In this document: piece after piece, positions 733 through 57,951 of the stretch
Position numbering within the stretch: the first letter of the stretch is position 1
How the letters are laid out: each line of letters begins with the position of its first letter
Assembly (NCBI GenBank): GCA_963665665.1
Contig: OY762428.1
Coordinates: 2,873,100-2,937,099, forward strand
Source of the DNA: Candidatus Kapaibacterium sp.
GTDB lineage: Bacteria > Bacteroidota > Ignavibacteria > Kapaibacteriales > UBA2268
Direction of reading: 5' to 3'
Length of the DNA stretch: 64,000 nt
Made by a program: the position numbers and the translations under genes
Notes under the pieces: generated by a model
Told to the model about the DNA's origin: nothing
Database searches by the model: none
The model's input: only the letters and a program-made list of their open reading frames with translations

Positions 733-1803
733 ATGATTGTTAAGGAGAAGACCTTTCAGAAGGTTTTGGTATTGAATCCGATGCTGATCGCAAAAACGAT
801 CGGATGTGACGAGAAAAAATTAAGAGTGCTAAGCGTTGAATATGCTTATGCTCATCATATTGAAAATATTAGTTCGAGGTTTGATATCGTCATTCGTATC
901 GATAATAAAGATGATTTCCGGGATATTTATCTTGAGCTGAAAACCCTTGACAGCAGTAGTTCGATTGGACAAATCGAAAAATATTACGAGATAGTGACTT
1001 TTGATAAATACCATCAACTGTCTGATAATAAAAGGGAACTGCATTTCATGGTTCTGGAAAGCGAGTATGGTTATCCTTCTTTAGCGGGATACCTGGAAAA
1101 ATTCAACAGGACTATCAGTGAAAATATCAATCTTTATGTTGTTCGAAAGGATGACTTTATCAAATACCTCGGAAACGATTCGAAGGGATTTGAAATGAAA
1201 AACAGAATACAAGATTACAAGCTAAGCGATATAAATGTTGAAACTGTAAACAGGTTTATTGAAGGGGAATATAACGAGGAATACCTGCTGAACTTTATTA
1301 ATTATCTCAGCCCGAGGTACGGCGCTGAAAACAGCGGGAAGCGTTATAACAATGCCGCTGATTTCTTTTACCGGGTTTTTGAAACAGTTTGTTCCGGATT
1401 CGAATATTACGATGATATTAAGATTGGAGAAAATAAAATCCTGAAAAACGGAAATTCCCGGACGATAAATTTCAGGTATAAGAACAGGACTGTTCTGTCC
1501 TTGTTTGCCAATAATTATCCCTTACAGTTCAAACTATTCTTACGTGATGGTTTTGATAAGGGCCTGCAATTAATGATTGAGTACCTTGAAAGCAACTCTG
1601 ATATAATTCTTAAAGACGTTAGGAACAACCATGAAGGCTGGAGCAGGGACAACAGAATGATTTTCAAAGCATTTCCGGCAAAAGGAAAAAAGCAGCTTTT
1701 CCTGCCGCTTGATAAATGGTATGAGGAAAAACAAAGCAATATAGATTCTTTAGTTGTTACTTTAAATTACATTTTTAAAACAATATTGGATGGAGGAGAA
1801 TAA
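733..1803 (+). CDS. hypothetical protein with RecB/Cas4-like PD-(D/E)xK nuclease-fold motifs
   Basis: 356-aa ORF. Motif string FDIVIRID ... IYLELK ... GQIEKYY fits D / ExK / QxxxY. Its stop overlaps the next start (TAATG at 1801-1805). Fold call is by eye only. Confidence 0.4.
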   Translation: MIVKEKTFQKVLVLNPMLIAKTIGCDEKKLRVLSVEYAYAHHIENISSRFDIVIRIDNKDDFRDIYLELKTLDSSSSIGQIEKYYEIVTFDKYHQLSDNKRELHFMVLESEYGYPSLAGYLEKFNRTISENINLYVVRKDDFIKYLGNDSKGFEMKNRIQDYKLSDINVETVNRFIEGEYNEEYLLNFINYLSPRYGAENSGKRYNNAADFFYRVFETVCSGFEYYDDIKIGENKILKNGNSRTINFRYKNRTVLSLFANNYPLQFKLFLRDGFDKGLQLMIEYLESNSDIILKDVRNNHEGWSRDNRMIFKAFPAKGKKQLFLPLDKWYEEKQSNIDSLVVTLNYIFKTILDGGE

Positions 1804-2855
1804 TGAAGGATGTTAGTTCACAAGCAAACAAAGTAGCTGAAATACTCGACAAGTTTTATGAAAAATCTGTAAACGGATATTCTAAAATGAAATCGGCAAA
1901 GGATTTAGCTTCTTCCTATTCCGATAAGAAACTAACTCAAAATGCTGCTATTGATTCATTAATCAAATGGCAGGTATCAAAAACTGCAACATCAGGTTTT
2001 GTAACAAGTTTGGGCGGGTTTGCAACTATGCCGATAACCCTGCCAAGTAATATTGCTATTCTGCTTTTTCAGCAAATGCGTATGACGGCGGCTATCGCGC
2101 ATATCAGGGGATATGATATTAATGATCCGGGAACAAAAAGCCTTGTGTATTTAACTCTTACCGGAAATAAAATGAGCGGTATTGTAAATGACTTAGGCTT
2201 GGATATAGAGATAATAAAAAAATCAGCAATAAAAGCTACTAAAGATGTTGCTAAGAAAGTATTAACAGACGAAGTAATTGAGAAAATCACCAAATTGATA
2301 GCACGTAAAGTATCCGAAAGGATTGCCGTAAAAAGCTCGAAATACATTGTTAAACTGGTACCTGTAGCAGGTGGTATAGTCGGGGGTACTTTCGATAGTG
2401 TTCAAACTTTAGCAGTAGCAAAAAAAGCCAAAGAAGTATTCAGCCAGCCGGAAATTGATAACAGCGATAATACAGCTACTCGGGAATCATCCAAAGTTGA
2501 TGATGCTATTGATCTTGAAACAAATAAACTGAATATATATATTAATTTGATCAAAGCAGACGGAAGAATTGACAGAAAAGAGATGGAACTGTTTGATGAT
2601 GCTATTCAAAACTCTTTACTGGATGATTCCTCGAAAGATTTACTTTATAAAAATATTATGAATGATTCCTTTATTCCTGTCAATTATGAATTTATTAAGA
2701 AGCATCCCGCTTCAATACCAGGTATATTATATGATCTTCTTGATTTGGCAAAAGTTGACGGAACTATTCACGACAAAGAAATAGAATACATCCGCGAAGT
2801 AGCCCATAAATTAGATGTTGGCGATGCTTTCATTAATGATTTGTTGGATATTTAA
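1803..2855 (+). CDS. EcsC-family domain fused to two TerB-like domains
   Basis: The N-terminal half (KWQVSKTATSGFVTSLGGFATMPITLPSNI..) resembles the EcsC family as I recall it. The C-terminal half has two TerB-type repeats (KADGRIDRKEMELFDDAI; KVDGTIHDKEIEYIREVA). Confidence 0.6.
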   Translation: MKDVSSQANKVAEILDKFYEKSVNGYSKMKSAKDLASSYSDKKLTQNAAIDSLIKWQVSKTATSGFVTSLGGFATMPITLPSNIAILLFQQMRMTAAIAHIRGYDINDPGTKSLVYLTLTGNKMSGIVNDLGLDIEIIKKSAIKATKDVAKKVLTDEVIEKITKLIARKVSERIAVKSSKYIVKLVPVAGGIVGGTFDSVQTLAVAKKAKEVFSQPEIDNSDNTATRESSKVDDAIDLETNKLNIYINLIKADGRIDRKEMELFDDAIQNSLLDDSSKDLLYKNIMNDSFIPVNYEFIKKHPASIPGILYDLLDLAKVDGTIHDKEIEYIREVAHKLDVGDAFINDLLDI

Positions 2856-3182: not shown

Positions 3183-3713
3183 ATGAGTAAAGATATTGAA
3201 AAACTATCAAATGATTTTGTAAGTGAAGTTAGAAATATTATCGGGAATGCACGTATTTCTGCTGTTCGGAGTGTTGAATTTCACCGGGTTGAAATGTACT
3301 GGAAACTTGGTGAACGTATTTTTAATGAAGAACAGAAAGGTAAAGAAAGAGCTGATTATGGCTCTTATTTAATAAAAAATCTTTCTAAAGAACTTGTTCC
3401 TGAATTCGGAAGTGGTTTTTCAATCCGACAATTACACTGGTGTCGTCAATTGTACAGAGAATATCCAAAAGTGTACGCACTGCGTACACAATTAAATTGG
3501 ACTCAGTACCGTATTCTTATATCCATTAATGACAAGGATAAAAGAGAATATTACGAGTTAGAAGCTGTTAAGAACGCATGGACAGCAAGAGAATTAGAAA
3601 GGCAGGTAAACTCCGGATTATACGAGCGATTGCTATTAAGTAATGATAAAAAATCCGTACTTGATGTTGCACGAAATATTAGAATTCCAGAATCTGCTCT
3701 TGAGATTGTATAG
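3183..3713 (+). pseudogene. truncated DUF1016/YhcG-family gene (N-terminal half only)
   Basis: 176 aa with the typical N-terminal region (VEFHRVEMYWKLGERI..GFSIRQLHWCRQLY). The ORF stops where the C-terminal PD-(D/E)xK nuclease half of full-length (about 340-370 aa) members would begin. Confidence 0.6.
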
Positions 3714-4120: not shown

Positions 4121-5041
4121 TTAAGCGACTTTTTCAAAAACAATTCTGTAATGCTCGAATATCTCCTTCTCAAAGAGCATTTTATTCCCGTCGATTTTCG
4201 TGAGTTGGTACCATTCCCTGAATGCGCTGTTAGTAAATAATCTCGGCAACAAGGAGATATATAGAAGAAGCTTTCTTGCCGACAATTTCCCAAATGCAGC
4301 GGTCCACCTGTTAATTGTTTCGATATAGTCCAACCTGCCACTCTCTACCGAGATCAGCTTGAAATGTTTCCCGGCCGGATCTATGAGACCTTCTTTTCCG
4401 TATGGCAACCACGACCCCGGGAATTTACGGCAAATGATGTCCATGAGTTCCTCGTCACTGAACTCCGTTTTAGTCAGGTCAGTTTTCCCAAATGGGATGT
4501 TCTCGAATTCGACCATATTGGGGCCGAACACCATCGACTGACAGTAGAATCGACCGCCCACGGGCAGTAGACTTGCAACCTGATCAAAATATTTTCTGTA
4601 GATATCTTCCTGTTGTCCGGCCTTGTACTGCTCCACTGAGCATAAGTGTTCCGGGCTTCCCATGGCGGTTACAGCGTCGAAGGTGCCAAAAGTGTCCGGA
4701 CGGATATCTTTTGAATCCATGTGTTTCACATTCAAACCATTTTTAATACAAGCGTCTGCCTGGCCCTTTGCCAATACAACACCGTATGGCTTGGCGCCAA
4801 TGCTGTTCAAGTAGTTCAAAAAGGCACCCCAACCGCAGCCCATGTCTAAAACCTTGCTCCCTTTGTTGATTTTGCAGCTTTCAACAATATAGCGGTGCTT
4901 TCTATCCTGAGCTTCTTCAATTGTCATCGAAAAATCGCCATCGAACTTCGCTCCGCTGTAAGCTCCCTTTTCACCAAGGCTTAAGCGAAAAATCTTGTCC
5001 ATTATTGTGTAGTGGGCATCTAAATCTTTTTGGTTTGCCAT
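4121..5041 (-). CDS. class I SAM-dependent methyltransferase, cyclopropane-fatty-acyl-phospholipid-synthase-like
   Basis: SAM motif I VLDMGCGWGAF and overall CMAS-like layout, 306 aa. Confidence 0.8.
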   Translation of the reverse strand: MANQKDLDAHYTIMDKIFRLSLGEKGAYSGAKFDGDFSMTIEEAQDRKHRYIVESCKINKGSKVLDMGCGWGAFLNYLNSIGAKPYGVVLAKGQADACIKNGLNVKHMDSKDIRPDTFGTFDAVTAMGSPEHLCSVEQYKAGQQEDIYRKYFDQVASLLPVGGRFYCQSMVFGPNMVEFENIPFGKTDLTKTEFSDEELMDIICRKFPGSWLPYGKEGLIDPAGKHFKLISVESGRLDYIETINRWTAAFGKLSARKLLLYISLLPRLFTNSAFREWYQLTKIDGNKMLFEKEIFEHYRIVFEKVA

Positions 5042-8640: not shown

Positions 8641-8723
8641 TTTCGGATAAATTTCGGATATTTCGGATAAATGGCGGTAATGTTCGGTAAATGTCCGATA
8701 AACATAATAAATGTCCGATAAAA
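8641..8723 (+). repeat. non-coding array of about 8 phased TTCGGATAA-like motifs
   Basis: tttcggataaa tttcggata tttcggataaa tggcggtaa tgttcggtaaa tgtccgataaa cataataaa tgtccgataaaa. Spacing is 9-11 bp and the array begins 16 nt after the stop of 7276..8625. Confidence 0.85.
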
Positions 8724-8780
8724 TTTTAAAAAAAGTAATAGATGAATTAATTGTATAATTTTAATGTACGACAAAACAAG

Positions 8781-8803
8781 CAGGAGCCCTAAAATGCCAG
8801 CAC
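8781..8803 (+). repeat. 23-bp direct repeat, right copy
   Basis: Identical to 7020-7042. Confidence 0.9.
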
Positions 8804-8905
8804 TGGAAAGAGCAATAGGAATAGCCGAGCAGGCGGATAATGCGATAGAATTGTGAAACAGCAGTAAGCCTTTTACATATTAATGATTAAAACAATAATC
8901 ATCTC

Positions 8906-11900
8906 CTAAAAAAGCCTTTCCTGTCCGGGCCGTTTATTCAGCTCATCCTTGAAAATCAGATTAGCTTTTCCCGGCCTGAGGTTTTTATCACAAAGCGATT
9001 TATAAATACCGAGAAGGTGTCCGGCATAATACTCGTAATCATAAGGAATGATTATCTGTCGTGATATATCTTCAATACCACCCGGATTATTTGCAAGGCC
9101 GCGAATAATATTGGCCAGTTCCTGCTCTGAATTATGATCATAAAGGAAACCATTTCTGTCATGTTCGATAAAATCAGGAATACCGCCAATTTCGGCACCG
9201 ATTACCGGCAAACCGAGTGACAGCGCCTCGAGTATAACCAGCCCGGCGCCTTCCTCCCAGATACTTGGAACAATCACGGCATCAAGCTCGTTCCCAAGCG
9301 AGGCCATTTCCCGCCTGTGGTAAGGGCCGGTCCATTTAATATTCTCCGAATTATAAAGCTTAAGCAGTTCGTTTTTATATATTTGGGATGCAAAACCGTG
9401 GATGATAAATTCTGTATTTTCAGGATCAACTCGTTTTGCGGCTCCTATAATCTTATGTATTCCTTTGTGTGGTATCACAGTTCCAAAGAAGCCGAACCTT
9501 GCCGGATGGTGTTGTGCTTTCAATTCATTCTTACTGCTTATTAATGCCGACATATTGTCGGGAATTTGGTGTACAACAGCCATTTTGTTCTTGTTTGCGC
9601 CGAATTCGCTAAGCAGTTCTTTCACTCTTGTAGAAATGGCCAAAGTAATATTCAATTTTTCATTTATAAGTTCGCGGGCTTTATCAAATCTCTGTCTGTA
9701 AAGTTCTTCTCTTTCCGGAAATACTTTTGCAAGAGGCGAGTTTGCAAAGAAATCAGTATTTTTCCATTTTCGCATATCATTATTGAACATATAAAGCAGA
9801 GGGTCAATGAAATGATAATTATGCGGAGTATAAACCGTAGGGATGCCCTTTGCTTCGGCAACATCAGCTATTGCAAACGACAATCCGAGAAAATTATGAA
9901 AATGGACTATATCTGGTTCGAACCTTTCGAGTGTGGATTCAAATAAGCTTACAATTTTTTCATCCTTTATCTCGCGTGCCGGATTCAGCTCGTCAGTCAT
10001 ATCCACGGGACGATTATAAACTCCGAAAAGATGTACACCGCTGTCGTTACTCTCCTCGAAAAAATATTGTTCTTTAACTTTCGGATGTTTAAGTCCGGCA
10101 AAAAATACGGCAACGTCATATCCCCTCGCAGCAAAATATCTTGCCAGAGAACGTGGGTGAAGAGTACCGCCCCCGGATTCATTCCATCCGAACATAGTGA
10201 ATAATATAGCCGGATGTTTCTCATTTCTCTTTTTTACTTTTCCCTTCCCTGCCGGGATTATAACAGCCGGATTCGACGGAATTTCATTTTCTTCCGGTTC
10301 TGCTATTGGTATCCCGCTCGGGCCGGTATAAACATCGCTGAATTCCTGTTCGGTTTCAATAGCAATCAGCTCATTGTTTTCAATTACAAATGCCCTGGCT
10401 TTTCTGGATTCCTTAACAACATCGTGAAGCAATAATGAAACAGCAAAATTTATGGGGGCATGGAATTGCCCGGAGGTATTTTGCTGCAAATATTTAATAT
10501 TCTCTGTTGTTTCAGGCAGCGTCATAGAACGTTTCCAAAGTTCCTGAGCCTGTTTTATGTCACCGCTGCAAAAAGAAATTATACCAGCATTATTATAGAA
10601 CATTTTTACCAGACGCGACCTGAAATCAGGTGTAAGCCCCTGTAGGTTTAACGCTTTCTTGAACATATCCAGAGCCATTGGAAAATCCCGGTAAGGCGAT
10701 AGCATACACAGATTCCCAAGATCCCAAAGCGCTGCCGCCAGCGCTGTTTTATCTTCTTTGAACCTGTCCCTTCCGGGATAAATATCTGTCAGTGGTATTT
10801 CTTTTCTGAAACGGGACATAATGTAGCGTAATTCTTTTGCTGTTTTTAAAGCATTATCTTTTCCGCTCAGGCTGTCATCTCGTTTTAGAAACAGGCTTAG
10901 GTTCTCCTTCAGGTGTGCAGCCCCGAATCGATGTGCAATTCTAATAAACAGATCATAATCTCCTGCTACTTCAAGCTCCTCGTCAAAAAGCCCGACTGTC
11001 AGATGCGCCTCCCGCCTCCACATTGGATTTGAACCGAAAAGGCTTGTTGACAAAGCCGTACCGATATTGAAGTCCGGCCAGGCATATTTCAATTTGGCGC
11101 TATTGTTCCCGAAAGTTTCATTCTCTATGTCAGTTATCAGTGAGTCTGCATAAACAAGTCCTAAATCGCTGTTCCTGTCCAATATGTTTGAAAGAACTTC
11201 GAATGCATCATTTCTCAGCCTGTCGTCAGTATTGGTATTTATAAGGTATTTCCCCCTGGCGTATTTTACAGCACGATTCCAGGCAGTGTAAAGCGATTCC
11301 CTTGATTCGGTTCGGATATATTTAATATTCGGGCATCGCGATCGAAATTCCATAACAATTTCTTTTTCATTTTCTTCGGATCCGCTGTCAATAACGATTA
11401 GTTCCGATGAATCAAAGATCGATTGTTCACACAGATTTTCAAGGCAGCCTTTAATAAATTTCTCGGAGTTGTAGGTAGAAATAATTGCGCTAACCTTAAT
11501 CTCATTATCAGGCGGGTTGTCGATAATTTTATCCCTGCTGAATGAAATTTCCTCAACGTCAATATTTTCAAACAATGAATATTCTTTCAGGTCGATCAAT
11601 TTTGGCGAGGAGTGCTTTTTATTCCATTCTTCCCGGTCAGCTGTTAAAATCAGAGGCCTTTCATTTTTGTTATCCAATGTTCTTTTGAACGCTGATTCTA
11701 TCAGGGATTTGGGAATATCTTTCACACAATAGGGTGTCTGATAGAAACATTCCCAGTTGCACGAAAAACACTCCACGGGCGCTGCCGCTATTGTTGTTAG
11801 TCCGGAATAGGGCATAAACCTTCCGAAATGTCCTCCGCCGAGTAATATTGCATTCGGAGTTCCAACAGCGCAGGCTACATGGGCAAGGCCGGTCTCGGCT

Positions 11901-14900
11901 CCGATTGCAGCGCGGCATTTTTTAATAATGGCCGCAGCCTGCAAAATCGTTGTTTTACCTGATAGATTTATAGCCCTTACACCTGCATCATCAATACATT
12001 GCTGATTTATCTTATAATCGCTTTCCGAGCCAAGCGTTATAATCGAAAGCCCGCGTTCTTTACAAATTTGCGATATTGCTTTTCCATATTCCTTGTACAG
12101 CCTTACATCAAACTGCGCTCCGGCAAAAAGAGCTATTGTTTTTTCGGGTGCAAGGCCGTTTTCGGCAAACAGGCTGTCTGTATAATTTATTTCTTCTTTG
12201 TTTAGCCATATTCTTGGCTTTAGTTCCGTTTTTTCTATTCCAAGTCCGGAGAGGAAATCCTGATGCCGTTGTATCTCATTCTTATATTCGCCGGGAGACG
12301 GAATTATTTTAGAATAGCGTCCGTTGTTTTTCAGCAAAACATCATAAGGCATGTTCGAAGTATCGCCTTCAATAGCAACAGTTTCCTTAGCATTGCTGCC
12401 CAGGACCATAGCGTCCCCGTGTTCAGTCCTGGAATACACCGGATGCAAGGCTATATCAGCTTCTAATTCTTTTAGTTTATTTATAAATTCAACCCGGTAG
12501 TTATCGTCGGCCTGGAGCAGCAGCCCGTCAAAGCTGATAACTTCATCAATATAGGGGCATGCTTTATAAAAATCCGTAAGCTTATTATCACACACTGCGA
12601 TTATATCATGATCGCCGAATTTTGCTCTGAATTCCGGGAGCATGGAAGCAGAAAGCACTGCGTCCCCTATCGAATCCGGCCTTATATAAAGTAATCTATT
12701 CTTTTTTTTTGATCCTTTGTCTCCGTACTCAGGATTGAATTTTGCAATACAAAAGCCAAATTTTTCCTTCGAATCAACAATAATCTCAAATCTCGGGTCG
12801 CTTTTCATTTCAAGGAAGCTCTTATGATGCTTGATATGATATATATCGTCAAGAGCTATATAGCATGGTCCTTCAAGCAACTGAATCAGATATTGGAATT
12901 CCACGTACCCGATGTGTCCGGCGCTGTCAAGCAGGACAAAATCAGGTTTGTTTTGGAATTGTGCCAGGCTTTTGCCGAGAATATCGTCCGGAACGTCGCT
13001 GAAATTTGTTTCACGATAATAATTCATCGCCCTTTCGTGTTCTTTGTGGTCAACGAAAATATCTTCGAATTCAATATTTTCAACTGTCCGGTCTTTGATT
13101 TCCTGCATTGTTGGCAGCATTCTTCGCGGTACTGATAAACCGTGAAGCAATTTTACATTCTCAATCAGCCCGTTGTTCTGAAGATTGAAATAAGCATGGC
13201 GAATATGCAGTGGGTTTACTTCAATTGAAAGAAACGCTGCATTTTCGATACCAATCCTTTTAATCGATCCGGCAATAATCGTTGTGGTTCCTGTTCCGAG
13301 ATAAGTGCCGGTTTCAATTATCTTCTTCGGCCTGATTTCCTTGAACAGCGAATGGATTGCCGAACCGAATTCCGATTCCTTTCCTACTGCCGTCAGGTCC
13401 TTTTCAACTTCATCCTGGCCTGCAATTTTTACTTTAGGTTTTTCCTGTTTCTGCAAAGTATCGTTTGCTTCATATTTATTCCCAAGAATTTCATCGGGCA
13501 GCATGTTTTTAAGGAAAATTGCCGTACCATTGTCCTGGCTTGAATTAATTATCAGTTTTAGTTCCGGAAATTCTTCAAGGAACTGATGGGCAGTGTCAAG
13601 AAGGTAGCCGTGCGAAGGATGTATAATATCATCGAAAATTATGGCGCCCTTTTCATTCAAAAGCTCATACGCGTCGCGAAGGTCTTCCAAAGCGCCCTCA
13701 GCGCTGTGGTCTCCGTCAACATTTATCAGGTCAAATTTCAGCCCTTCATCTTTAAATTTTTTCAGAACCAGGTGGCTGTTTCCCTGTATCATCTTCAGGT
13801 TTGTTTTCGAGTTTGTTTTCGAGAAAAATCCTTCAATCTGCTTTTTCGTGAATTCCATGGTATTTGGCATACCGGCGTACTGCCCCGACCACATATCAAG
13901 GGCGTAAGCGGTTTCAATATTTACGCCGTTCAGCGCCTGAACGAAAGATCCGCCGGTTCTTACTCCGATTTCAAGATAAGATTCCGGTTTCAAAATTCTT
14001 GTAAGGTATGCCAGGCCGACATGTACATTCCAGAATTTTACGCCGTCCCTGATATTTTCCCTGATAGTATCTCTTCTTCTAAGCAGCGGTTCATCAAGCT
14101 CGATATAGTCCCAGGCGTCCAGAGCTGCCTGCTGATACTTAGCCGAACCAATTACTTCAATAGCAAGCTTTTCATCAGTTTTTTTTGTTTCTATATTACT
14201 ATTCTGTGGCTCATCAACAGAATTGAAATTTTTAATAAAATCAAGCATTACTTCCGGATGGGAGCCGTCGAATATTCTTGTGTAGGAGTTTTTATCGCCC
14301 GTCCAGGGGCCGTATTCTTTTTCCAGTTCAGCCCTGTTTTCAGGAGTCCACTTCATGTAGAAATCATTCATCCACTTATCAAGGTCAGTTGCCCAAAGTT
14401 TATCCCAGCCATATTGTTTATAAAGAGAAATTTTCTGCTGAACCTGGTTTTTGGTTACATAACTATAATGGCAGGGGATAATTCCCAACTCCCTTGTTTC
14501 GCTGCCGTCAATAATTTTCCCGTCTTCGGTGGTTCTTCCGTTCGGGAGAAGCATTTTTGGCGGCCGGTGATCGATGAATTTTGCGCCGGGTTCAAATTTG
14601 AATATTCTCCTGTATTGTGCACCAGGATCTCTGAACCGGGGCGATTCGAATATATAATCAAATCCTTTCCAGAAATTATCAGGTATGAAATTAACCTGGC
14701 TGATATCCGGATTTTCATGCAGCAGTTCCAGAATCTTTTCAAGGTCAGATTTCCTGTAAACTTCATCTGAATCAACTAAGAAAATATAATTTCCGCTCGC
14801 TGATTCCAGAGCTTTGTTCTGCATTTGCATTTTCTCGGGCCAGCTTCCCCTTATTAGTTGAATTTTGGAATCCGGGTCATCAAAATTTTCGAGCAATTCA

Positions 14901-17431
14901 ACAGTTCCGTCAACCGAAGCCCCCTGGGGATCGGCAAAATCCATACAGTTTTCAACAGCGCCTTCAACAATGATTATTTCATGTGCAATGTTATAAACAG
15001 ATTTCAGGGCATATTCAACAAAAGGCATTCCGTTTAATACTATCATAACAACAGAAAGCCTGACATCCCTCAAAGTTTCCTCTTCAGTGATTTCACGGCT
15101 TTTAATAAATTCCATAACCCTGTCCAGGGCGGTATTTATTTCAACATCATCAGGATTATCAAGCAATGAATAAGTGAGTAATCTTTCTGCGTCCTTCGGA
15201 TAGCCTTCATTCATCAGCCTTTCACCTTCCCGTATCAGCATCTGCTTCTCTTCGCTGTCGGTATCGGCTGATTTTACCAGGTCAACAACAATAGACATAG
15301 GGCGGTAAGGATTTTTAACCCTGTCGTCATGGTCGGGTGTTCTTAGAATATATCCTTTTGAATAATCAATATTTTTTGTGATAAATGTTCCGTCAGGAAG
15401 GTATGAATGCAGAAATTCTATACTTCCTTCGCGGCCAAACATTGTTTTCTTCAGGATTGGTTCAAGGGTCTCATAAAGCGGGAACCACTTATAGCCCGGA
15501 TTTTCCTTTGTACCTCCGCCGGCAGGATCGAATATAATATTCCCATTCTCATCCTTTTCGCAACGATCAATGATAAGCTGGCATCTATAGTCCGGAACAG
15601 AAATTCTTAGCACTCCGCCGGGTTTAAGAACACGCCAGATTTCATTGATAACGGGATGCAAAGCCTGGTAGTCAAGCCGTCCGAAAATATCCTCAGCAAG
15701 ATACAGATCAACTGATCTGTCTTCAAGAGGCATTGAGTTTGTAATATCATGAAGTATATGTCTTGGGTCAGATTTATGTTCGGAAAGCCCGATCAGTCCC
15801 TGATAATTATCATCATCGGGAATATCTCCTGCATAAAGTTTGATTTCCGGTTCAAAAATAATATCGTCGAATGTAAGTTTTTTATCAACTTCTGTTTCAT
15901 GATCTTCTGTTGCGTTTATTTCGGGCAAGTTATCAATTTCTGTTTCAGCAGGTTGCGACAAATATTCAGAATAATTATTATACACATTGATAAGAATATT
16001 TTCCGGGAGTTCTGATTCCAACTCTGCGCTGATTCTCCTGAGTAAATCAATATCGTCTGACAGGAAAAAGAGTTGAATGTTTTTGCCTTCAAGCTGCATA
16101 TCCGGATTTTCAATAATCAATATGGCCATACCTGCCGGAATTCCTTTGTGATACTGAATCCTCTGGGCATCATGAAGAGCCAGCAGCCCGCCTTCTTTCA
16201 TCAGGATTGAACCAATTTTAAGGCATTCAGCCCTTGCCCTGCCGTCAACGATAACCATATCGAATCGTTTATTCAAACTTACCGGGTGAAAAATATAATC
16301 TCTGAACGATTCTGCATCGCCGTCTGTTCCGTATGGAAATTCCATATTATTAGGTACATGATTCAGTTGTACGTTTTGCAGCCCGAATTTTTTAAGCTTT
16401 TCAGCAACTTCTTCATACCATTTTTCGTCATGTTCAATGCAATGCCATACGCTGCCGGGCGGTATCAACCTGCTATAATAAATTGTACTTGTGCCCGAAC
16501 CCCATTCTAGAACATCAACCGGTAATTTGAAACGATCCAGGACATGCTCGAAAGCCTTTATCTCGTGTTCTTTCATAAATGGGAGCGGTATTTCAGAATT
16601 GTCAACAATTTGTATATTATTTATATCGGGTATATCAGGAGTTTCAATTTTATCAGTTTTAATTTCCACTTTGCAATATTCATCAATATACTTTTCCAGG
16701 CTTTCCTGAGAATCGAAAAGTGCCTGAACAGCTATTGAACTTCCAAGAACAAGGTTTTGCCGGCCAGTTTCATCCGGCAAATCAGACATGAAGTATTGTA
16801 CTCTGTCAGGTTTTGAAGCGGGATCAACATTGAACTTGGAAAAGTCCTTTCCAAACCAGCAGAATATTGGTGGAAGCTGGTCTCCAAATGGCGGTTTAAC
16901 AGGGGCAAAATTGTATTTTTCGCCATTACCGCTATTAATATCTGTAATAATTTGTGAATGAATTTCATCCCGGCTCTCATTACCGGTAAAAATTCCTTTA
17001 TTTTTTAGAATATCTAATGATTGCTCTGAATTAAGCGTATTAGCTGATACCAGTAATGGTTCAGGATTTTTTATCCTGTATTCAATAAGCGATTTAATGC
17101 TATCTGCATCGAGATAACAAATATCTGCATTTATTTGAATATATATAGTCTTAGCGTCCCGGCAGTATGAATAAAATTCCGACAGGGTTTTCTCACCCTC
17201 TGGTTTCACGCTTAGCCTTACTAATTTAATAAATTCCTTTTTTTCCCTTGCCAAAGCAATCATTGAAGAAATATAGTTTTTATTCTCTGTATTAACCCAA
17301 ATATGCCACTGGTCAATAATACCGCATTTCTCTATCCCCTTATATATAATACTGAGCAATCCTCTGTCATCAGAAGGTGTTATTGCAATTATTCTGTATT
17401 TTTCTATCATTTCCCGACCTGCTATATTCAT
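8906..17431 (-). CDS. giant multidomain glycosyltransferase/methyltransferase fusion protein (2841 aa)
   Basis: An uninterrupted 8.5-kb ORF in AT-rich DNA. By-eye motifs: GT2 (LSVVMIVLNGMPF..FLVDSDE; VSAIISTYNSEKFI..DSGSEENE), GT9 heptosyltransferase-like (LLYIRPDSIGDAV..GAETGLAHVACAVGTP), GT4 (EEGAGLVILEALSLGLPVIG), and class I MTases (VLEWGSGTSTIYY; WRVLKPGGVLRISVPD; YLEIGVRTGGS..VDGDHS; IIETGTYLGTGT). Confidence 0.85.
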   Translation of the reverse strand: MNIAGREMIEKYRIIAITPSDDRGLLSIIYKGIEKCGIIDQWHIWVNTENKNYISSMIALAREKKEFIKLVRLSVKPEGEKTLSEFYSYCRDAKTIYIQINADICYLDADSIKSLIEYRIKNPEPLLVSANTLNSEQSLDILKNKGIFTGNESRDEIHSQIITDINSGNGEKYNFAPVKPPFGDQLPPIFCWFGKDFSKFNVDPASKPDRVQYFMSDLPDETGRQNLVLGSSIAVQALFDSQESLEKYIDEYCKVEIKTDKIETPDIPDINNIQIVDNSEIPLPFMKEHEIKAFEHVLDRFKLPVDVLEWGSGTSTIYYSRLIPPGSVWHCIEHDEKWYEEVAEKLKKFGLQNVQLNHVPNNMEFPYGTDGDAESFRDYIFHPVSLNKRFDMVIVDGRARAECLKIGSILMKEGGLLALHDAQRIQYHKGIPAGMAILIIENPDMQLEGKNIQLFFLSDDIDLLRRISAELESELPENILINVYNNYSEYLSQPAETEIDNLPEINATEDHETEVDKKLTFDDIIFEPEIKLYAGDIPDDDNYQGLIGLSEHKSDPRHILHDITNSMPLEDRSVDLYLAEDIFGRLDYQALHPVINEIWRVLKPGGVLRISVPDYRCQLIIDRCEKDENGNIIFDPAGGGTKENPGYKWFPLYETLEPILKKTMFGREGSIEFLHSYLPDGTFITKNIDYSKGYILRTPDHDDRVKNPYRPMSIVVDLVKSADTDSEEKQMLIREGERLMNEGYPKDAERLLTYSLLDNPDDVEINTALDRVMEFIKSREITEEETLRDVRLSVVMIVLNGMPFVEYALKSVYNIAHEIIIVEGAVENCMDFADPQGASVDGTVELLENFDDPDSKIQLIRGSWPEKMQMQNKALESASGNYIFLVDSDEVYRKSDLEKILELLHENPDISQVNFIPDNFWKGFDYIFESPRFRDPGAQYRRIFKFEPGAKFIDHRPPKMLLPNGRTTEDGKIIDGSETRELGIIPCHYSYVTKNQVQQKISLYKQYGWDKLWATDLDKWMNDFYMKWTPENRAELEKEYGPWTGDKNSYTRIFDGSHPEVMLDFIKNFNSVDEPQNSNIETKKTDEKLAIEVIGSAKYQQAALDAWDYIELDEPLLRRRDTIRENIRDGVKFWNVHVGLAYLTRILKPESYLEIGVRTGGSFVQALNGVNIETAYALDMWSGQYAGMPNTMEFTKKQIEGFFSKTNSKTNLKMIQGNSHLVLKKFKDEGLKFDLINVDGDHSAEGALEDLRDAYELLNEKGAIIFDDIIHPSHGYLLDTAHQFLEEFPELKLIINSSQDNGTAIFLKNMLPDEILGNKYEANDTLQKQEKPKVKIAGQDEVEKDLTAVGKESEFGSAIHSLFKEIRPKKIIETGTYLGTGTTTIIAGSIKRIGIENAAFLSIEVNPLHIRHAYFNLQNNGLIENVKLLHGLSVPRRMLPTMQEIKDRTVENIEFEDIFVDHKEHERAMNYYRETNFSDVPDDILGKSLAQFQNKPDFVLLDSAGHIGYVEFQYLIQLLEGPCYIALDDIYHIKHHKSFLEMKSDPRFEIIVDSKEKFGFCIAKFNPEYGDKGSKKKNRLLYIRPDSIGDAVLSASMLPEFRAKFGDHDIIAVCDNKLTDFYKACPYIDEVISFDGLLLQADDNYRVEFINKLKELEADIALHPVYSRTEHGDAMVLGSNAKETVAIEGDTSNMPYDVLLKNNGRYSKIIPSPGEYKNEIQRHQDFLSGLGIEKTELKPRIWLNKEEINYTDSLFAENGLAPEKTIALFAGAQFDVRLYKEYGKAISQICKERGLSIITLGSESDYKINQQCIDDAGVRAINLSGKTTILQAAAIIKKCRAAIGAETGLAHVACAVGTPNAILLGGGHFGRFMPYSGLTTIAAAPVECFSCNWECFYQTPYCVKDIPKSLIESAFKRTLDNKNERPLILTADREEWNKKHSSPKLIDLKEYSLFENIDVEEISFSRDKIIDNPPDNEIKVSAIISTYNSEKFIKGCLENLCEQSIFDSSELIVIDSGSEENEKEIVMEFRSRCPNIKYIRTESRESLYTAWNRAVKYARGKYLINTNTDDRLRNDAFEVLSNILDRNSDLGLVYADSLITDIENETFGNNSAKLKYAWPDFNIGTALSTSLFGSNPMWRREAHLTVGLFDEELEVAGDYDLFIRIAHRFGAAHLKENLSLFLKRDDSLSGKDNALKTAKELRYIMSRFRKEIPLTDIYPGRDRFKEDKTALAAALWDLGNLCMLSPYRDFPMALDMFKKALNLQGLTPDFRSRLVKMFYNNAGIISFCSGDIKQAQELWKRSMTLPETTENIKYLQQNTSGQFHAPINFAVSLLLHDVVKESRKARAFVIENNELIAIETEQEFSDVYTGPSGIPIAEPEENEIPSNPAVIIPAGKGKVKKRNEKHPAILFTMFGWNESGGGTLHPRSLARYFAARGYDVAVFFAGLKHPKVKEQYFFEESNDSGVHLFGVYNRPVDMTDELNPAREIKDEKIVSLFESTLERFEPDIVHFHNFLGLSFAIADVAEAKGIPTVYTPHNYHFIDPLLYMFNNDMRKWKNTDFFANSPLAKVFPEREELYRQRFDKARELINEKLNITLAISTRVKELLSEFGANKNKMAVVHQIPDNMSALISSKNELKAQHHPARFGFFGTVIPHKGIHKIIGAAKRVDPENTEFIIHGFASQIYKNELLKLYNSENIKWTGPYHRREMASLGNELDAVIVPSIWEEGAGLVILEALSLGLPVIGAEIGGIPDFIEHDRNGFLYDHNSEQELANIIRGLANNPGGIEDISRQIIIPYDYEYYAGHLLGIYKSLCDKNLRPGKANLIFKDELNKRPGQERLF

Positions 17432-17562
17432 TATGGTTTAAAATAGCAAAAGGGTAAATAACAGCAAAATCATTGCCAAACTAAATAAAGGATAGTTTTC
17501 AACATTTAGAGGTTAGTGGAATATTATTTTGAAACGGATAATTCAAGTACCAAAACAATATT

Positions 17563-17595
17563 AAAAAAGCCCCTTCAATTTTGAATCAAAGGGGC
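17563..17595 (-). terminator. intrinsic-terminator-like hairpin with no annotated gene upstream
   Basis: The minus strand reads GCCCCTT-loop-AAGGGGC followed by TTTTTT. It lies about 135 nt upstream of the giant ORF start. Confidence 0.45.
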
Positions 17596-17733
17596 CGGCT
17601 TATAATTAATATCAAAAATCCTGATCCGCGAGGGAAAATTAATAAGTTATAGAAACAAGCCGCAAATTAGTATGTTGTTTATATTAATGAAATTTGCCAT
17701 ATCAATTTATCTAAACTATGAAATATTATCATG

Positions 17734-54546: not shown

Positions 54547-57500
54547 TTACATACAGTTAGGATCTGGCATTTCATCCACATATCCATGAATATCATTTTT
54601 AGAATGAATTTGTATGTAAACGATTGGAATAATAATCCTTCCAGTTTTATCAATAAAGCCGTATTTCCCATCTTTTGCTACTTTTGCCAGTCCTTTATAA
54701 AAATAATCTGCATAGTCATATTCAACAGGTACTAATACTTTGCCGCTTTTATCTATAAAGCCGTATTTCCCATCTTTTGCTACTTTTGCTAGGCCTTCGC
54801 TGAAAGAAGAGACATGATCATATTCAACAGGTACTATTACTTTACCGCTTTTATCTATAAAACCCCACTTATCACCTTTTCTTACTCTTGCAAAACCTTC
54901 ATGGAAAAAAATGCATCCATCATATTCAACAGGTACTATTACTTTTCCGCTTTTATCAATAAAACCGTATTTCCCATCTTTTTCTACTATTGCTAGGCCT
55001 TCGCTGAAAGAAGAGACATAATTATATTCAGGTACTATTACTTTGCCGCTTTTATCTATAAAACCGTATTTCCCATCTTTTTCTACTATTGCTAGGCCTT
55101 CGCTGAAATAAGAGACATAATTATATTCGAAAGGTACTATTACTTTGCCGCTTTTATCTAAAAAGCCGTATTTGCCATCTTTTTCTACTCGTGCAAGACC
55201 TTCGTTAAAAGAATCGACATAATCATATACAAGGGGTATTACTAGTTTACCCCTTTTGTCTATAAACCCATATTTCCCATCTTTAGAAACTTTCGAAAGC
55301 CCATCGCTGAAACCATAGAAAAACTCATTATCATAATCAAGCGACATAATTTCCTTACCGCCTTTATTTATAATAAATCTTTTCCCATCTTTCATAACTT
55401 TAGCGTAGTCATCTTCATAGAAATGAAATTTTTTATCATATATTAATGGAATTACTACTTTACCGTTTTTATCAACCGATCCCCATTTTCCTTTTTTTTG
55501 AATTTGAATTAAATCACCATCTCTGAAACAAGAGACTTTATTATATTTCAATGGAATGACAAATTTTCCTTTCTTATTAATAAAGCCTAAACTACTTCCG
55601 ACTTCCACTTCTGCAAGACCGTCGCGGAAAAAATCAATCCAATCATATTCGAAAGGTATTACGACTTTACCACTTTTATCAATAAAGCCATATTTCCCAT
55701 CTTTTTTTACTCCTGCAAGACCTTCTCTGAACCAATTTGCATCTTCATATTCGAAAGGTATTACGACTTTACCACTTTTATCAATAAAGCCATATTTCCC
55801 ATCTTTTTTTACTCCTGCAAGACCTTCTCTGAACCAATTTGCATCTTCATATTCGAAAGGTATTACGACTTTACCACTTTTATCAATAAAGCCAAATTTT
55901 CCATCTATTCTTACACTTGCAAGACCTTCTCTGAACCAATATGCTTCTTCATATTCAAATGGAATAATTTCCTGACCATTATTTTTAATATCAATATAAC
56001 CCCATTTCTCTGATTTTTTTGCTAGAACAATTCCTTCTGAAAGTGAATTGTATTCTATTCTTTCGTATTCAGGTGGAACTATTGTTTTCCCAGTTCTATC
56101 AATAAGTCCTCTACCTCCATTTGTTTTTCCTACTTCAAAATATTCATTATATGATCCAGTAATTGAACGATATTTAAAATCAACAACTACTTCACCTAAG
56201 CTGTCAATTATTCCATCATACCCTTTTGTATCTGTTACATGTGCCAAACCATTATGATAATTAAAGGCATTAATATATATAAATGGAATTACGACTTCTC
56301 CTTTTTTATTAATATATCCATACTTTCCATCCTTTTTGACATATGCTAATCCTTCAGAGAAATTTCCCACTGAAGATTTATCATATATAGGTTTATATTT
56401 AGATTCATAAATATCATATTTAATAGGAATGACGACTTTTCCAGTAGAATCTATATATCCGGTTTTACCGTATTTTTCAACCCTAACCAGCCCTTCGTTG
56501 TAGTTACCAATAAAATCATAGTCTAATGGAAAAACTACAGCTCCCGAGGTATCTATATATTTCCATACTCCTTCTTCTTTAACTCTTGCAATGCCTTCTT
56601 GAAAATCACTCACTTCTTCATACTTAGTGGCAATTACACCTTTCCCTGTTGTGTCTATAAACCCCCACCCATTCAAATAACCGCCTTTTGCATGTTTTAC
56701 TTTAGCAAAACCATTTTTAAAATTATTAATAATTTCATATTCGACAGGTAATACTTCTTCACCTTTGTTATTTATTATCCCATATCGATAACAACGACCT
56801 TGACAACATATACCTTGAACCCTTGCTAATTTTTGATTTAAAAATTCAATGTTAGAGTAATCAAAACTAAATAACTCATCACCGCTTTTATCAATGAAAG
56901 TCTTTTTTCCACCTATTATTACCTGGGCGATCCCATCACTGAAATCTCCAGCTTCGTCATAATCAAAAGGTATTACAACATTGCCACTCTTGTCAATAAA
57001 TCCACACTTTCCATTTTTTCTCACCTTGGCAAGTTCTTCTGAAAAGTTAAAAGGATAGTCATAAGGGATATAAACCCCGAGAGATTCCAAATTAATAACA
57101 ATATTCCCACTTTTATCTATAAAGCCGTATTTCTCATCCTTATTTACTGCTGCAAGACCTTCATGAAAATTCTCAGCCCTGTCATACTCAAACGGAATGA
57201 CTATTTTACCGGTTTTATCTATAAAGCCATATTTATTTCCTTTACGTACTCGTACAAGATTATCTGAAAATTCCCAAACTGCAGCATATTCAGAATAGAA
57301 AATGATTTTTCCGTTTTTGTCAATAAAGCCCCACTTATCATCTTTTTTTACTTTTGCCATTCCATTTTTGAAATCATGAGCTCTTTCAAATTCATAAGGA
57401 ATTACTTCATTGCCGCTCTTGTCAATAAAGCCATACTTCCCATCTTTTTCTATAGCAGCTAAATCTTCTGAAAAATCATTGCTTTTATAAAATTTGAAAG

Positions 57501-57951
57501 ATATTAACAACTTTCCTTTTTTATCTATGTATCCTGACTCTTTATTATTATAAACTCTTGCGAGTCCACAACTAAAATCTCTTGCCTCAGTGTATTTTAT
57601 TGGAATTACTACTTTGCCGCTTCTATCTATAAAGCCGTAATCACGATCTTTTTTCACTAATGCAAGTTCATCGCTGAAAGATCCGGCCTTATCATATTCT
57701 AAGGGAACAACAATTTCTCCATCATTATTAATAAAGCCCCATTTCCCATTACTACTTACTCTCGCAAGCCCTGAATGAAAATCACCCACAAATTCGAATT
57801 CTTCTCTAAAAGTAAGAAAGACATCTCCATCTTTATCAAGAAAATGGAATTGCCCTTTTCCATCATTTGCAATAAAAGCAATATCTTTATTATTATCACA
57901 TGCAGAGATTAGTATTATCATAAAACTTAAAATAATTGAAATTCTGGTCAT
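54547..57951 (-). CDS. WG-repeat (KWG) lipoprotein, 1134 aa
   Basis: Lipobox ILISAC. About 30 units of about 34-35 aa of the form GLA.V.KDGKYGFIDKSGKVVIPFEYD. Confidence 0.85.
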   Translation of the reverse strand: MTRISIILSFMIILISACDNNKDIAFIANDGKGQFHFLDKDGDVFLTFREEFEFVGDFHSGLARVSSNGKWGFINNDGEIVVPLEYDKAGSFSDELALVKKDRDYGFIDRSGKVVIPIKYTEARDFSCGLARVYNNKESGYIDKKGKLLISFKFYKSNDFSEDLAAIEKDGKYGFIDKSGNEVIPYEFERAHDFKNGMAKVKKDDKWGFIDKNGKIIFYSEYAAVWEFSDNLVRVRKGNKYGFIDKTGKIVIPFEYDRAENFHEGLAAVNKDEKYGFIDKSGNIVINLESLGVYIPYDYPFNFSEELAKVRKNGKCGFIDKSGNVVIPFDYDEAGDFSDGIAQVIIGGKKTFIDKSGDELFSFDYSNIEFLNQKLARVQGICCQGRCYRYGIINNKGEEVLPVEYEIINNFKNGFAKVKHAKGGYLNGWGFIDTTGKGVIATKYEEVSDFQEGIARVKEEGVWKYIDTSGAVVFPLDYDFIGNYNEGLVRVEKYGKTGYIDSTGKVVIPIKYDIYESKYKPIYDKSSVGNFSEGLAYVKKDGKYGYINKKGEVVIPFIYINAFNYHNGLAHVTDTKGYDGIIDSLGEVVVDFKYRSITGSYNEYFEVGKTNGGRGLIDRTGKTIVPPEYERIEYNSLSEGIVLAKKSEKWGYIDIKNNGQEIIPFEYEEAYWFREGLASVRIDGKFGFIDKSGKVVIPFEYEDANWFREGLAGVKKDGKYGFIDKSGKVVIPFEYEDANWFREGLAGVKKDGKYGFIDKSGKVVIPFEYDWIDFFRDGLAEVEVGSSLGFINKKGKFVIPLKYNKVSCFRDGDLIQIQKKGKWGSVDKNGKVVIPLIYDKKFHFYEDDYAKVMKDGKRFIINKGGKEIMSLDYDNEFFYGFSDGLSKVSKDGKYGFIDKRGKLVIPLVYDYVDSFNEGLARVEKDGKYGFLDKSGKVIVPFEYNYVSYFSEGLAIVEKDGKYGFIDKSGKVIVPEYNYVSSFSEGLAIVEKDGKYGFIDKSGKVIVPVEYDGCIFFHEGFARVRKGDKWGFIDKSGKVIVPVEYDHVSSFSEGLAKVAKDGKYGFIDKSGKVLVPVEYDYADYFYKGLAKVAKDGKYGFIDKTGRIIIPIVYIQIHSKNDIHGYVDEMPDPNCM
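55643..55892 (-). repeat. perfect 102-bp tandem repeat (2.4 copies) inside the WG-repeat gene
   Basis: 55643-55744 equals 55745-55846, and the third copy is identical to about 55892. Encodes GKYGFIDKSGKVVIPFEYEDANWFREGLAGVKKD twice. Confidence 0.9.

Follow-up and report, generated by a model that had tools for sequence, protein, structure and literature searches.

A giant glycosyltransferase–methyltransferase fusion protein from Candidatus Kapaibacterium and its family: candidate assembly lines for cytoplasmic protein glycosylation

A few pathogens and model bacteria are known to O-glycosylate flagellin in the cytoplasm, and they rely for this on small single-module transferases that attach one type of sugar. 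One of them is GmaR of Listeria monocytogenes, a flagellin O-GlcNAc transferase composed of a glycosyltransferase (GT) domain of family GT2 and tetratricopeptide repeats (TPR). FlmG of Caulobacter crescentus binds the flagellins through a TPR domain, and their glycosylation by its GT-B domain takes place in the cytoplasm (PMC7591256). The autotransporter heptosyltransferases TibC and AAH (BAHT family) are cytoplasmic GT-B enzymes that modify proteins on serine, and TibC possesses an iron finger formed by four cysteines (PMC4358343). Here, we describe a single giant gene found in a stretch of 64,000 nucleotides (the window) of Candidatus Kapaibacterium sp. (contig OY762428.1, positions 2,873,100 to 2,937,099), whose product unites several GT and S-adenosylmethionine (SAM)-dependent methyltransferase (MT) modules on one polypeptide. 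Judged from sequence comparison it belongs to a widespread and experimentally uncharacterised family of GT/MT fusion proteins with a typical signature, namely a catechol-O-methyltransferase-like module (MTl) followed by a GT9 module that bears a cluster of four cysteines (Cys4 cluster). Our favoured reading, to which we give roughly even chances, is that of a cytoplasmic assembly line that would build a methylated oligosaccharide on a protein acceptor, most likely flagellin.

Both flagellin transferases mentioned above are informative for comparison. FlmG is a soluble cytoplasmic protein with docking repeats and a GT-B transferase, its acceptor is flagellin before export, and the giant protein can be likened to it by architecture. 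In size and equipment they differ considerably: FlmG has 596 aa with one transferase for one sugar (pseudaminic acid), whereas the giant protein comprises four to five transferase and up to four methyltransferase modules in 2834 aa and only a faint TPR region. FlmG is encoded together with flagellar genes, as are many relatives of the giant protein, but the gene in the window lies outside any flagellar locus. With GmaR it would have in common the fusion of a GT2 domain to helical repeats and cytoplasmic protein O-glycosylation. In contrast, GmaR consists of one module only, acts as an anti-repressor in addition and contains neither GT9 nor GT4 nor methyltransferase domains.

The open reading frame (ORF) is located at 8906..17431 on the minus strand and runs in a single frame from ATG to stop over 2841 codons without any internal stop, as the initial annotation had stated. 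Its true start is probably Met8 at 17410 and not 17431, because this methionine is where the publicly deposited gene prediction for the same protein (P0002, 2834 aa), on a contig of 5,458,198 bp, begins and the alignments with homologues of the N-terminal domain begin at residue 8 as well. Upstream, on the same strand, a terminator-like hairpin with a T-run is found (17568..17596, minus strand) and the spacer upstream of the ORF measures 543 bp. Therefore, the gene looks insulated from what lies further upstream and is probably monocistronic. It could be objected that so long an ORF results from faulty or chimeric assembly, or that it is a pseudogene in decay with dead modules, the more so as the N-terminal domain lacks the motifs of its own family and the surroundings are rich in decayed mobile and defence genes. 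We consider this extremely improbable. Contigs assembled independently from two runs of one sample (X1 and X3) span positions 8700-17700 with 0 differences, contigs from three runs of this sample in all cross the ORF free of indels, and a contig from a second study (run X4) crosses the same region with 75 substitutions but 0 indels. Among the 33 readable changed codons of the X4 strain 21 are synonymous, 12 non-synonymous and none is a stop, a pattern that speaks for a gene under purifying selection. In addition, the catalytic motifs are intact in the four firm GT modules and in MTa and MT24 (see below), and collinearity with homologues extends over up to 1500 aa. A chimeric or frameshift-corrected assembly, for which the initial annotation had advised a check, is thus not what the contigs of the two studies reveal. 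The strain of runs X4 and X5 (second study and sample) is ~0.8% divergent across the giant gene, and the contigs of all runs end near 8.4 kb and 17.8 kb. The gene was found in none of the RNA runs.

Profile searches against Pfam and NCBIfam were performed with the whole protein and with ten overlapping pieces. They confirm several independent GT and MT domains on one polypeptide and largely agree with the domain map that had been drawn by eye. All modules are given here in the order of the protein and lie on the minus strand. The N-terminal domain (aa 8-256; 16664..17410) represents a family without Pfam entry and with a GT-A/nucleotidyltransferase-like predicted fold. MTa (aa 308-421; 16169..16510) is a class I SAM methyltransferase-like module whose match to Methyltransf_24 (E 3.5e-4) stays below the Pfam cut-off and whose motif I (VLEWGSGTS) is intact. 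MTb (aa 531-720; 15272..15841) is methyltransferase-like and matches Methyltransf_11 above the cut-off (E 1.3e-6, aa 556-629), a match that covers the C-terminal half of the profile only; in place of GxGxG it has LYAGD, as is the case in 7/7 aligned homologues (47-55% identity). The following GT-A glycosyltransferase GT2a (aa 791-1066; 14234..15061; Glycos_transf_2, E 3.2e-13) shows its DxD motif as DSD at aa 887-889 and contains blocks that are 50-59% identical in more than 25 homologues. MT24 (aa 1127-1308; 13508..14053) is a SAM-dependent methyltransferase matched by Methyltransf_24 at aa 1153-1269 (E 2e-15 to 5e-23) with the motifs YLEIGVRTGGS and VDGDHS. MTl (aa 1333-1566; 12734..13435) is recognised faintly by Pfam (E 0.017) and matches catechol O-methyltransferases of the PDB at E 0.02-0.5; no other part of the protein is as well conserved, MTl being 53-64% identical in homologues. 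The GT9 module (aa 1576-1945; 11597..12706) has the GT-B architecture of the heptosyltransferase family (Glyco_transf_9, PF01075, E 7.5e-18, aa 1728-1889). Then follows GT2b, a further GT-A glycosyltransferase (aa 1980-2187; 10871..11494; Glycos_transf_2, E 9.8e-23, aa 1981-2170; Glyco_tranf_2_2, E 1.5e-10) with its DxD motif inside TNTDD at aa 2066-2070. The TPR-like helical region (aa 2226-2303; 10523..10756) yields matches to TPR_12 and TPR_2 with E ~0.006, below the cut-offs, and is 35-36% identical to its counterpart in the homologues P0003 and L016. Finally, the GT-B module GT4 (aa 2420-2793; 9053..10174) is matched by Glycos_transf_1 (E 3.6e-25, aa 2420-2783) and Glyco_transf_4 (E 9e-17) and displays the EX7E motif at aa 2727-2735.

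Catalytic motifs are therewith kept in GT2a (DSD), GT2b (TDD), GT4 (EX7E), MTa and MT24 (GxGxG-type) and GT9 (the aspartate of the GD motif). About five GT and about four MT domains had been counted initially. Four of the former are firm (two GT2, GT9 and GT4), the fifth being the GT-A-like N-terminal domain with degenerate motifs; of the latter two are clear modules and two are methyltransferase-like only, one of which (MTb) is devoid of the canonical GxGxG family-wide. The denomination “whole glycan-assembly pathway” went too far, as the protein has no function in nucleotide-sugar synthesis, export or as a carrier. A Kyte-Doolittle scan over the whole protein detected no transmembrane (TM) segment (highest 19-residue mean 1.81, inside the GT4 core) and hydropathy gave no sign of a signal peptide, which corresponds to what had been read from the sequence by eye. 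Accordingly predicted features are those of a soluble, cytoplasmic enzyme of ~325 kDa.

The N-terminal domain deserves separate consideration. In aa 1-290 neither Pfam nor NCBIfam gives a match, and the N-terminal 256 residues match no PDB sequence. When the N-terminal 285 aa were used in a word-index search, no stand-alone homologues were returned, whereas an exhaustive HMMER search revealed at least 483 homologues, most of which stand alone and are 260-300 aa long (P0054-P0201 among them). The AlphaFold model of the domain (pLDDT 86.5) is GT-A/nucleotidyltransferase-like, and Foldseek aligns it with KdsB, GtrB, ArnC and GlfT2 at TM-scores of 0.44-0.51. Given this predicted fold, the domain would represent a separate and so far undescribed family of transferases. 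The conserved motifs of this family are TPAGR, W.NT, DDD and a histidine. In the window copy TPAGR is changed to TPSDDR and DDD to NAD, so this copy of the domain may be inactive.

The GT9 module was compared with known structures. A profile built from 12 family sequences matched in the PDB only WaaF (1PSW), the GT9 protein 3TOV from Veillonella, and WaaC. The AlphaFold model of the module (pLDDT 83.8, pTM 0.86) is of low confidence at the Cys4 cluster, and its top Foldseek matches are again 3TOV, 1PSW and WaaC (target-normalised TM-scores 0.71-0.80). Fold, profile and the N-terminal GD aspartate are thus common to these enzymes and the giant's module; the aspartate (~aa 1590) is presumably the equivalent of the catalytic Asp13 of WaaC. 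On the other hand, identity to the three proteins amounts to 12-19% only and scores are far below the equivalog cut-offs: the NCBIfam models for heptosyltransferase II and I give 53.9 vs 134.6 bits and 36.5 vs 185.3 bits, respectively. Moreover, the giant's module differs by the extra Cys4 cluster and by its fusion within a giant protein, and while WaaC and WaaF occur in the context of lipopolysaccharide (LPS)-core biosynthesis, the neighbours of the giant gene are unrelated to the LPS core.

The Cys4 cluster CxxCxxxCx6C (aa 1888/1891/1895/1902; 11726..11770, minus strand) is situated at the end of the GT9 module and is a candidate metal finger. In the GT9 alignment A1, which contains the window sequence itself, the invariant elements comprise the N-terminal R/D/IGD residues, GGGHFGRF.PYS and the cysteine cluster, and all of them are present in the window copy; of the cysteines C319, C326 and C333 are invariant and C322 is nearly so. 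The alignments to WaaF, 3TOV and WaaC stop before or at the cluster and offer no matching cysteines. The iron finger of TibC has a similar place, towards the C terminus of the catalytic domain, and a spacing of its four cysteines (C339/C342/C358/C370) that differs from CxxCx3Cx6C of the giant's GT9. A kinship of the module with TibC and BAHT was considered and rejected. The profile produced no match to them in the PDB at E<=1, they are outside the top 50 Foldseek matches, and the GT9 model opens with Rossmann-type β-α units and has no N-terminal β-barrel. In the two cysteine clusters we see a resemblance and not a membership.

The fusion is not singular, as might have been assumed from the window alone. 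A length-matched search retrieved 52 giant homologues of 1.6-4.5 kaa (thousand amino acids), and scanning 185,579 species genomes (one genome per species) with the GT9 alignment uncovered at least 302 stretches with relatives of the GT9 module. They occur in Planctomycetota, Thermodesulfobacteriota, Nitrospirota, Ignavibacteriota, Bacteroidota, Verrucomicrobiota, Acidobacteriota, Calditrichota and others. BLAST mapping displays a collinear core GT2a-MT24-MTl-GT9-GT2b with ~45% identity in several giants, around which the other modules are shuffled. MTl is placed directly before GT9 in dozens of homologues (MTl 53-64%, GT9 37-54% identity). In the locus survey, which covered 80 of the at least 302 GT9-module stretches, complete GT9-bearing ORFs were present in 58 loci. 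The shortest encodes a stand-alone protein of 392 aa, the longest one of 4712 aa, and the median length is 1734 aa; their module sets vary and 13 of them reach or exceed the length of the window protein. The initial annotation had considered these activities as normally residing in separate genes and had proposed to search for orthologues. Such relatives exist indeed, in split form in some organisms and fused in others (392-4712 aa), so that each module is met with separately or in other fusions. The variability of these GT9-bearing fusions can therefore be considered as Rosetta-stone evidence that the modules work together. A search of the full-text literature found no description of this giant GT/MT fusion family.

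The closest relative, P0003 (2627 aa, at locus L007), has the N-terminal domain in common with the window protein and is 50% identical over 1500 aa. In the tree of GT9 modules the window copy pairs with P0003/L007 only (support 100/99) and deeper forks are not resolved. An attempt to assign the window GT9 to a flagellar or a non-flagellar clade consequently failed, this pairing being the only supported one.

The gene neighbourhoods of the family provide the only hint on its function. With home-made hidden Markov models for seven flagellar proteins applied to the 80 species loci, flagellin, FliD, FliS, FlhA/B or FliP/R were located at most 10 kb away in 29/80 loci, and a flagellar gene was nearby in 12/32 loci whose sequence continues for 5 kb or more beyond both ends of the ORF. 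This enrichment is large against a chance rate of ~1-3% per 20-kb window, a rough estimate with no matched control. Among six homologues looked up individually, four reside in loci for the flagellar filament or export apparatus. One of them precedes two TPR-glycosyltransferase genes, which are followed by flagellin-FliS-FliD; others are framed by FlgK/FlgL-type genes and FliD, after which come FlhB, FliR, FliQ and FliP. Nucleotide-sugar genes and a TylF-type methyltransferase are contained in these flagellar loci as well. The ten recurrent neighbour families that were annotated include GT2-TPR and TPR proteins, further GT9, UDP-glucose dehydrogenase, epimerases/dehydratases, DegT aminotransferases, radical-SAM enzymes and one family without Pfam match; flippase, polymerase, ABC exporter and lipid-carrier families are absent from these ten.

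The recurrent flagellar context together with the lack of membrane segments therefore fits cytoplasmic protein O-glycosylation of the FlmG type. In the assembly line favoured here the modules would act in turn, in the cytoplasm and on a protein acceptor prior to its export. One GT module would prime a serine or threonine of the acceptor, each remaining GT module would add one sugar from a nucleotide sugar, and the MT modules would O-methylate particular sugars, giving a short methylated hetero-oligosaccharide as product. The faint TPR-like stretch may help to dock the acceptor. Most likely, to judge from the neighbouring genes, this acceptor is flagellin in most flagellated relatives. An assembly line working on a fixed acceptor had already been suggested in the initial annotation, and this idea gives the best fit to the neighbourhoods of the family; order of action, acceptor and product are what we infer. 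GT9 genes are also part of the flagellin-glycosylation variable region in enterobacterial flag-2 loci (PMC6993521).

For the organism of the window a flagellin, if encoded elsewhere in the genome, is the leading candidate acceptor. In sulfate-reducing Kapabacteria flagellar genes are present but dispersed and not gathered in a cluster (PMC6338057; PMC7509429). Two metagenome-assembled genomes (MAGs) labelled “Bacteroidetes” whose GT9 loci were classed as non-flagellar contain an Ignavibacteria-type flagellin on another contig (L171 with L086 and L172 with L073), and missing linkage therefore does not exclude flagellin. A comparison of the contigs from the host's sequencing runs with flagellin-FliS-FliD of Ignavibacteria (80% likeness) brought up nothing but two spurious pieces of 35-40 nt on low-depth contigs, which is uninformative as to flagellin in this genome.

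Several observations weigh against flagellin, or against the assembly line itself. Near the giant gene there are no flagellar, nucleotide-sugar or TPR-partner genes, and no flagellar genes occur among those ORFs of the 64-kb window that were read or Pfam-scanned (a part of them). The TPR region is faint in the window copy, the N-terminal domain looks catalytically degenerate, and in the full-text literature we found neither a biochemical study of any member nor a paper on the family. P0003/L007, the sole close relative, is solitary, too, and its context is of the type IX secretion system (T9SS) type, near a Por_Secre_tail protein. Finally, a well-supported clade (L015, L018, L024, L025, L027 and L028) of proteins with 2.4-2.6 kaa is always solitary and never in a flagellar context. 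Its hosts are Chitinophagaceae, Kapaibacterium and Ignavibacteria MAGs, its modules comprise two MT11, GT9, GT2, two GT4 and a C-terminal TPR, and its neighbours are housekeeping genes, e.g. MoxR ATPase, Opp permease and EF-G. We know of no flagellated members of the Chitinophagaceae. The presence of a Chitinophagaceae MAG in this non-flagellar clade means that the family must have uses other than flagellin somewhere.

This leads to the question whether the same assembly line might serve another protein acceptor, i.e. T9SS cargo or an adhesin, a pilin or an S-layer-type protein, the family having been re-targeted in those Bacteroidota and Kapaibacteria where the genes are solitary. The solitary state of the window copy and of its sister P0003 with the Por_Secre_tail protein nearby, as well as the non-flagellar clade in Bacteroidota and Kapaibacterium, would agree with such a change, and so would P0008, which stands beside a giant Calx-beta/reprolysin protein and type II secretion system (T2SS)/pilus ATPases without flagellar genes. 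However, no non-flagellar protein partner recurs among the neighbours, nothing in the solitary loci positively indicates an acceptor, and proteins handled by T9SS and Sec are unfolded when they pass the inner membrane. Cytoplasmic glycosylation of T9SS or Sec cargo is, to our knowledge, without precedent in Bacteroidota. We therefore regard such a re-targeting for the window protein as rather improbable. As regards P0008 (4115 aa; L001 1-9747), its gene directly follows that of the Calx-beta/reprolysin-type protein, which exceeds 3756 aa, and this locus with its T2SS/pilus ATPase genes is a possible non-flagellar acceptor context. A more far-reaching proposal is that in Bacteroidota and Kapaibacteria the family has left the flagellum altogether. 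Solitary giants, that of the window included, would then be self-sufficient enzymes that glycosylate some non-flagellar acceptor in the cytoplasm. The Cys4-bearing GT9, as an unrecognised family of protein O-glycosyltransferases, would prime this acceptor and be a functional analogue of TibC of independent origin. We hold this for unlikely but worth stating; cytoplasmic protein glycosylation of this solitary-giant kind is likewise not known to us from Bacteroidota.

The initial annotation had referred to operons for LPS, capsule or protein glycosylation, and it has to be considered whether a lipid-linked or envelope glycan (a methylated O-antigen, a capsule or a core extension) could be synthesised at the cytoplasmic face, with the genes for its export lying at another place in the genome. 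WbdA/WbdD and WbbB are multidomain O-antigen synthases, and WbdD includes a methyltransferase. Similar to the giant protein they have several transferase domains on one polypeptide and make a defined glycan at the cytoplasmic face, but they work on undecaprenyl-linked acceptors with a co-encoded ABC exporter, nothing of which is encoded by the giant gene's side or among the annotated recurrent neighbours. GT9, GT2 and GT4 are typical of LPS and polysaccharide synthesis, the best NCBIfam matches are models of exopolysaccharide (EPS), teichuronic-acid and heptosyltransferase proteins, and methyltransferase domains are known to end O-antigen chains, as WbdD does in E. coli O9a. Nevertheless, all these NCBIfam scores are far below the cut-offs (cf. 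heptosyltransferase II above), and neither beside the giant gene nor among the ten annotated neighbour families is there any wzm/wzt, wzx/wzy, initiating phosphoglycosyltransferase or LPS-core gene. The initial annotation had likewise noted that flippase and polymerase genes are missing from the flanks. The strongest link of the family is to flagellar filament genes and points to cytoplasmic protein O-glycosylation, which makes the envelope glycan an unlikely product. Less probable still in our opinion is a soluble cytoplasmic methylated polysaccharide without export, resembling the methylmannose and methylglucose polysaccharides of mycobacteria. Such a role would suit a soluble protein with alternating GT and MT modules that is encoded by a solitary gene with no exporter nearby. 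Against it stand the flagellar context of the family, which favours a protein acceptor, and the four different GT families, which suggest a hetero-oligosaccharide and not a homopolymer; homology to the mycobacterial enzymes was not seen, with no search aimed at them.

The surroundings of the giant gene in the window are of mixed nature. One flank contains a regulator with AlbA_2, HATPase_c_4 and wHTH domains, a fragment with leucine-rich repeats (LRR), a CMAS-type (cyclopropane-fatty-acid-synthase) methyltransferase (4121-5041, minus strand; G+C 0.449 vs 0.35-0.36 in its flanks) and two defence candidates, namely a 350-aa protein (1803-2855, plus strand; PADLOC PDC-S29, E 6e-64) and a shortened DUF1016-type protein (3183-3713, plus strand; PADLOC PDC-S02, E 1e-71). 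Reading by eye adds a DnaE fragment and aat on the same side. On the other flank, also read by eye, NfeD, an MFS transporter, an opine-dehydrogenase-like gene and an amidohydrolase are followed by tRNA-Phe and a prophage, which extends from ~25.9 kb onwards. With defence candidates in the left flank and the prophage on the other side the giant gene therefore seems to lie in a variable, island-like stretch. A role of the giant protein itself in a defence system, an idea that came from a faint GT4-conflict Pfam match and the defence-type neighbours, was discarded: PADLOC yields a generic methyltransferase-domain match only. The prophage capsid and terminase genes adjoin a gene for a 1134-aa protein consisting almost entirely of WG β repeats (54547-57951, minus strand; 24 Pfam WG_beta_rep stretches). 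NfeD of the window has its closest relatives in Kapaibacterium-type MAGs (57-68% identity). The closest homologues include four MAGs deposited as “uncultured Hyphomicrobiales bacterium” (L089, L090, L091 and L096; 58-68%), whose labels look wrong or whose bins look mixed.

As one instance the giant protein is of moderate interest, which becomes higher for the family as a whole and for its solitary, possibly re-targeted copies. Hundreds of uncultured species, spread over at least eight phyla, possess members of the family, in which whole sets of transferases and sugar-methylating enzymes are joined in chains of up to 4700 residues. Should the modules work one after another, the glycan of a member could partly be predicted from its architecture, as the products of polyketide and non-ribosomal peptide synthases can be from their modules. 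If true, bacterial surface glycans might in this way be deduced from sequence, and the modules would supply parts for glyco-engineering. Solitary copies like that of the window would represent natural minimal systems, in which one gene should suffice to transplant the activity, and they raise the question of the acceptor in lineages without flagella.

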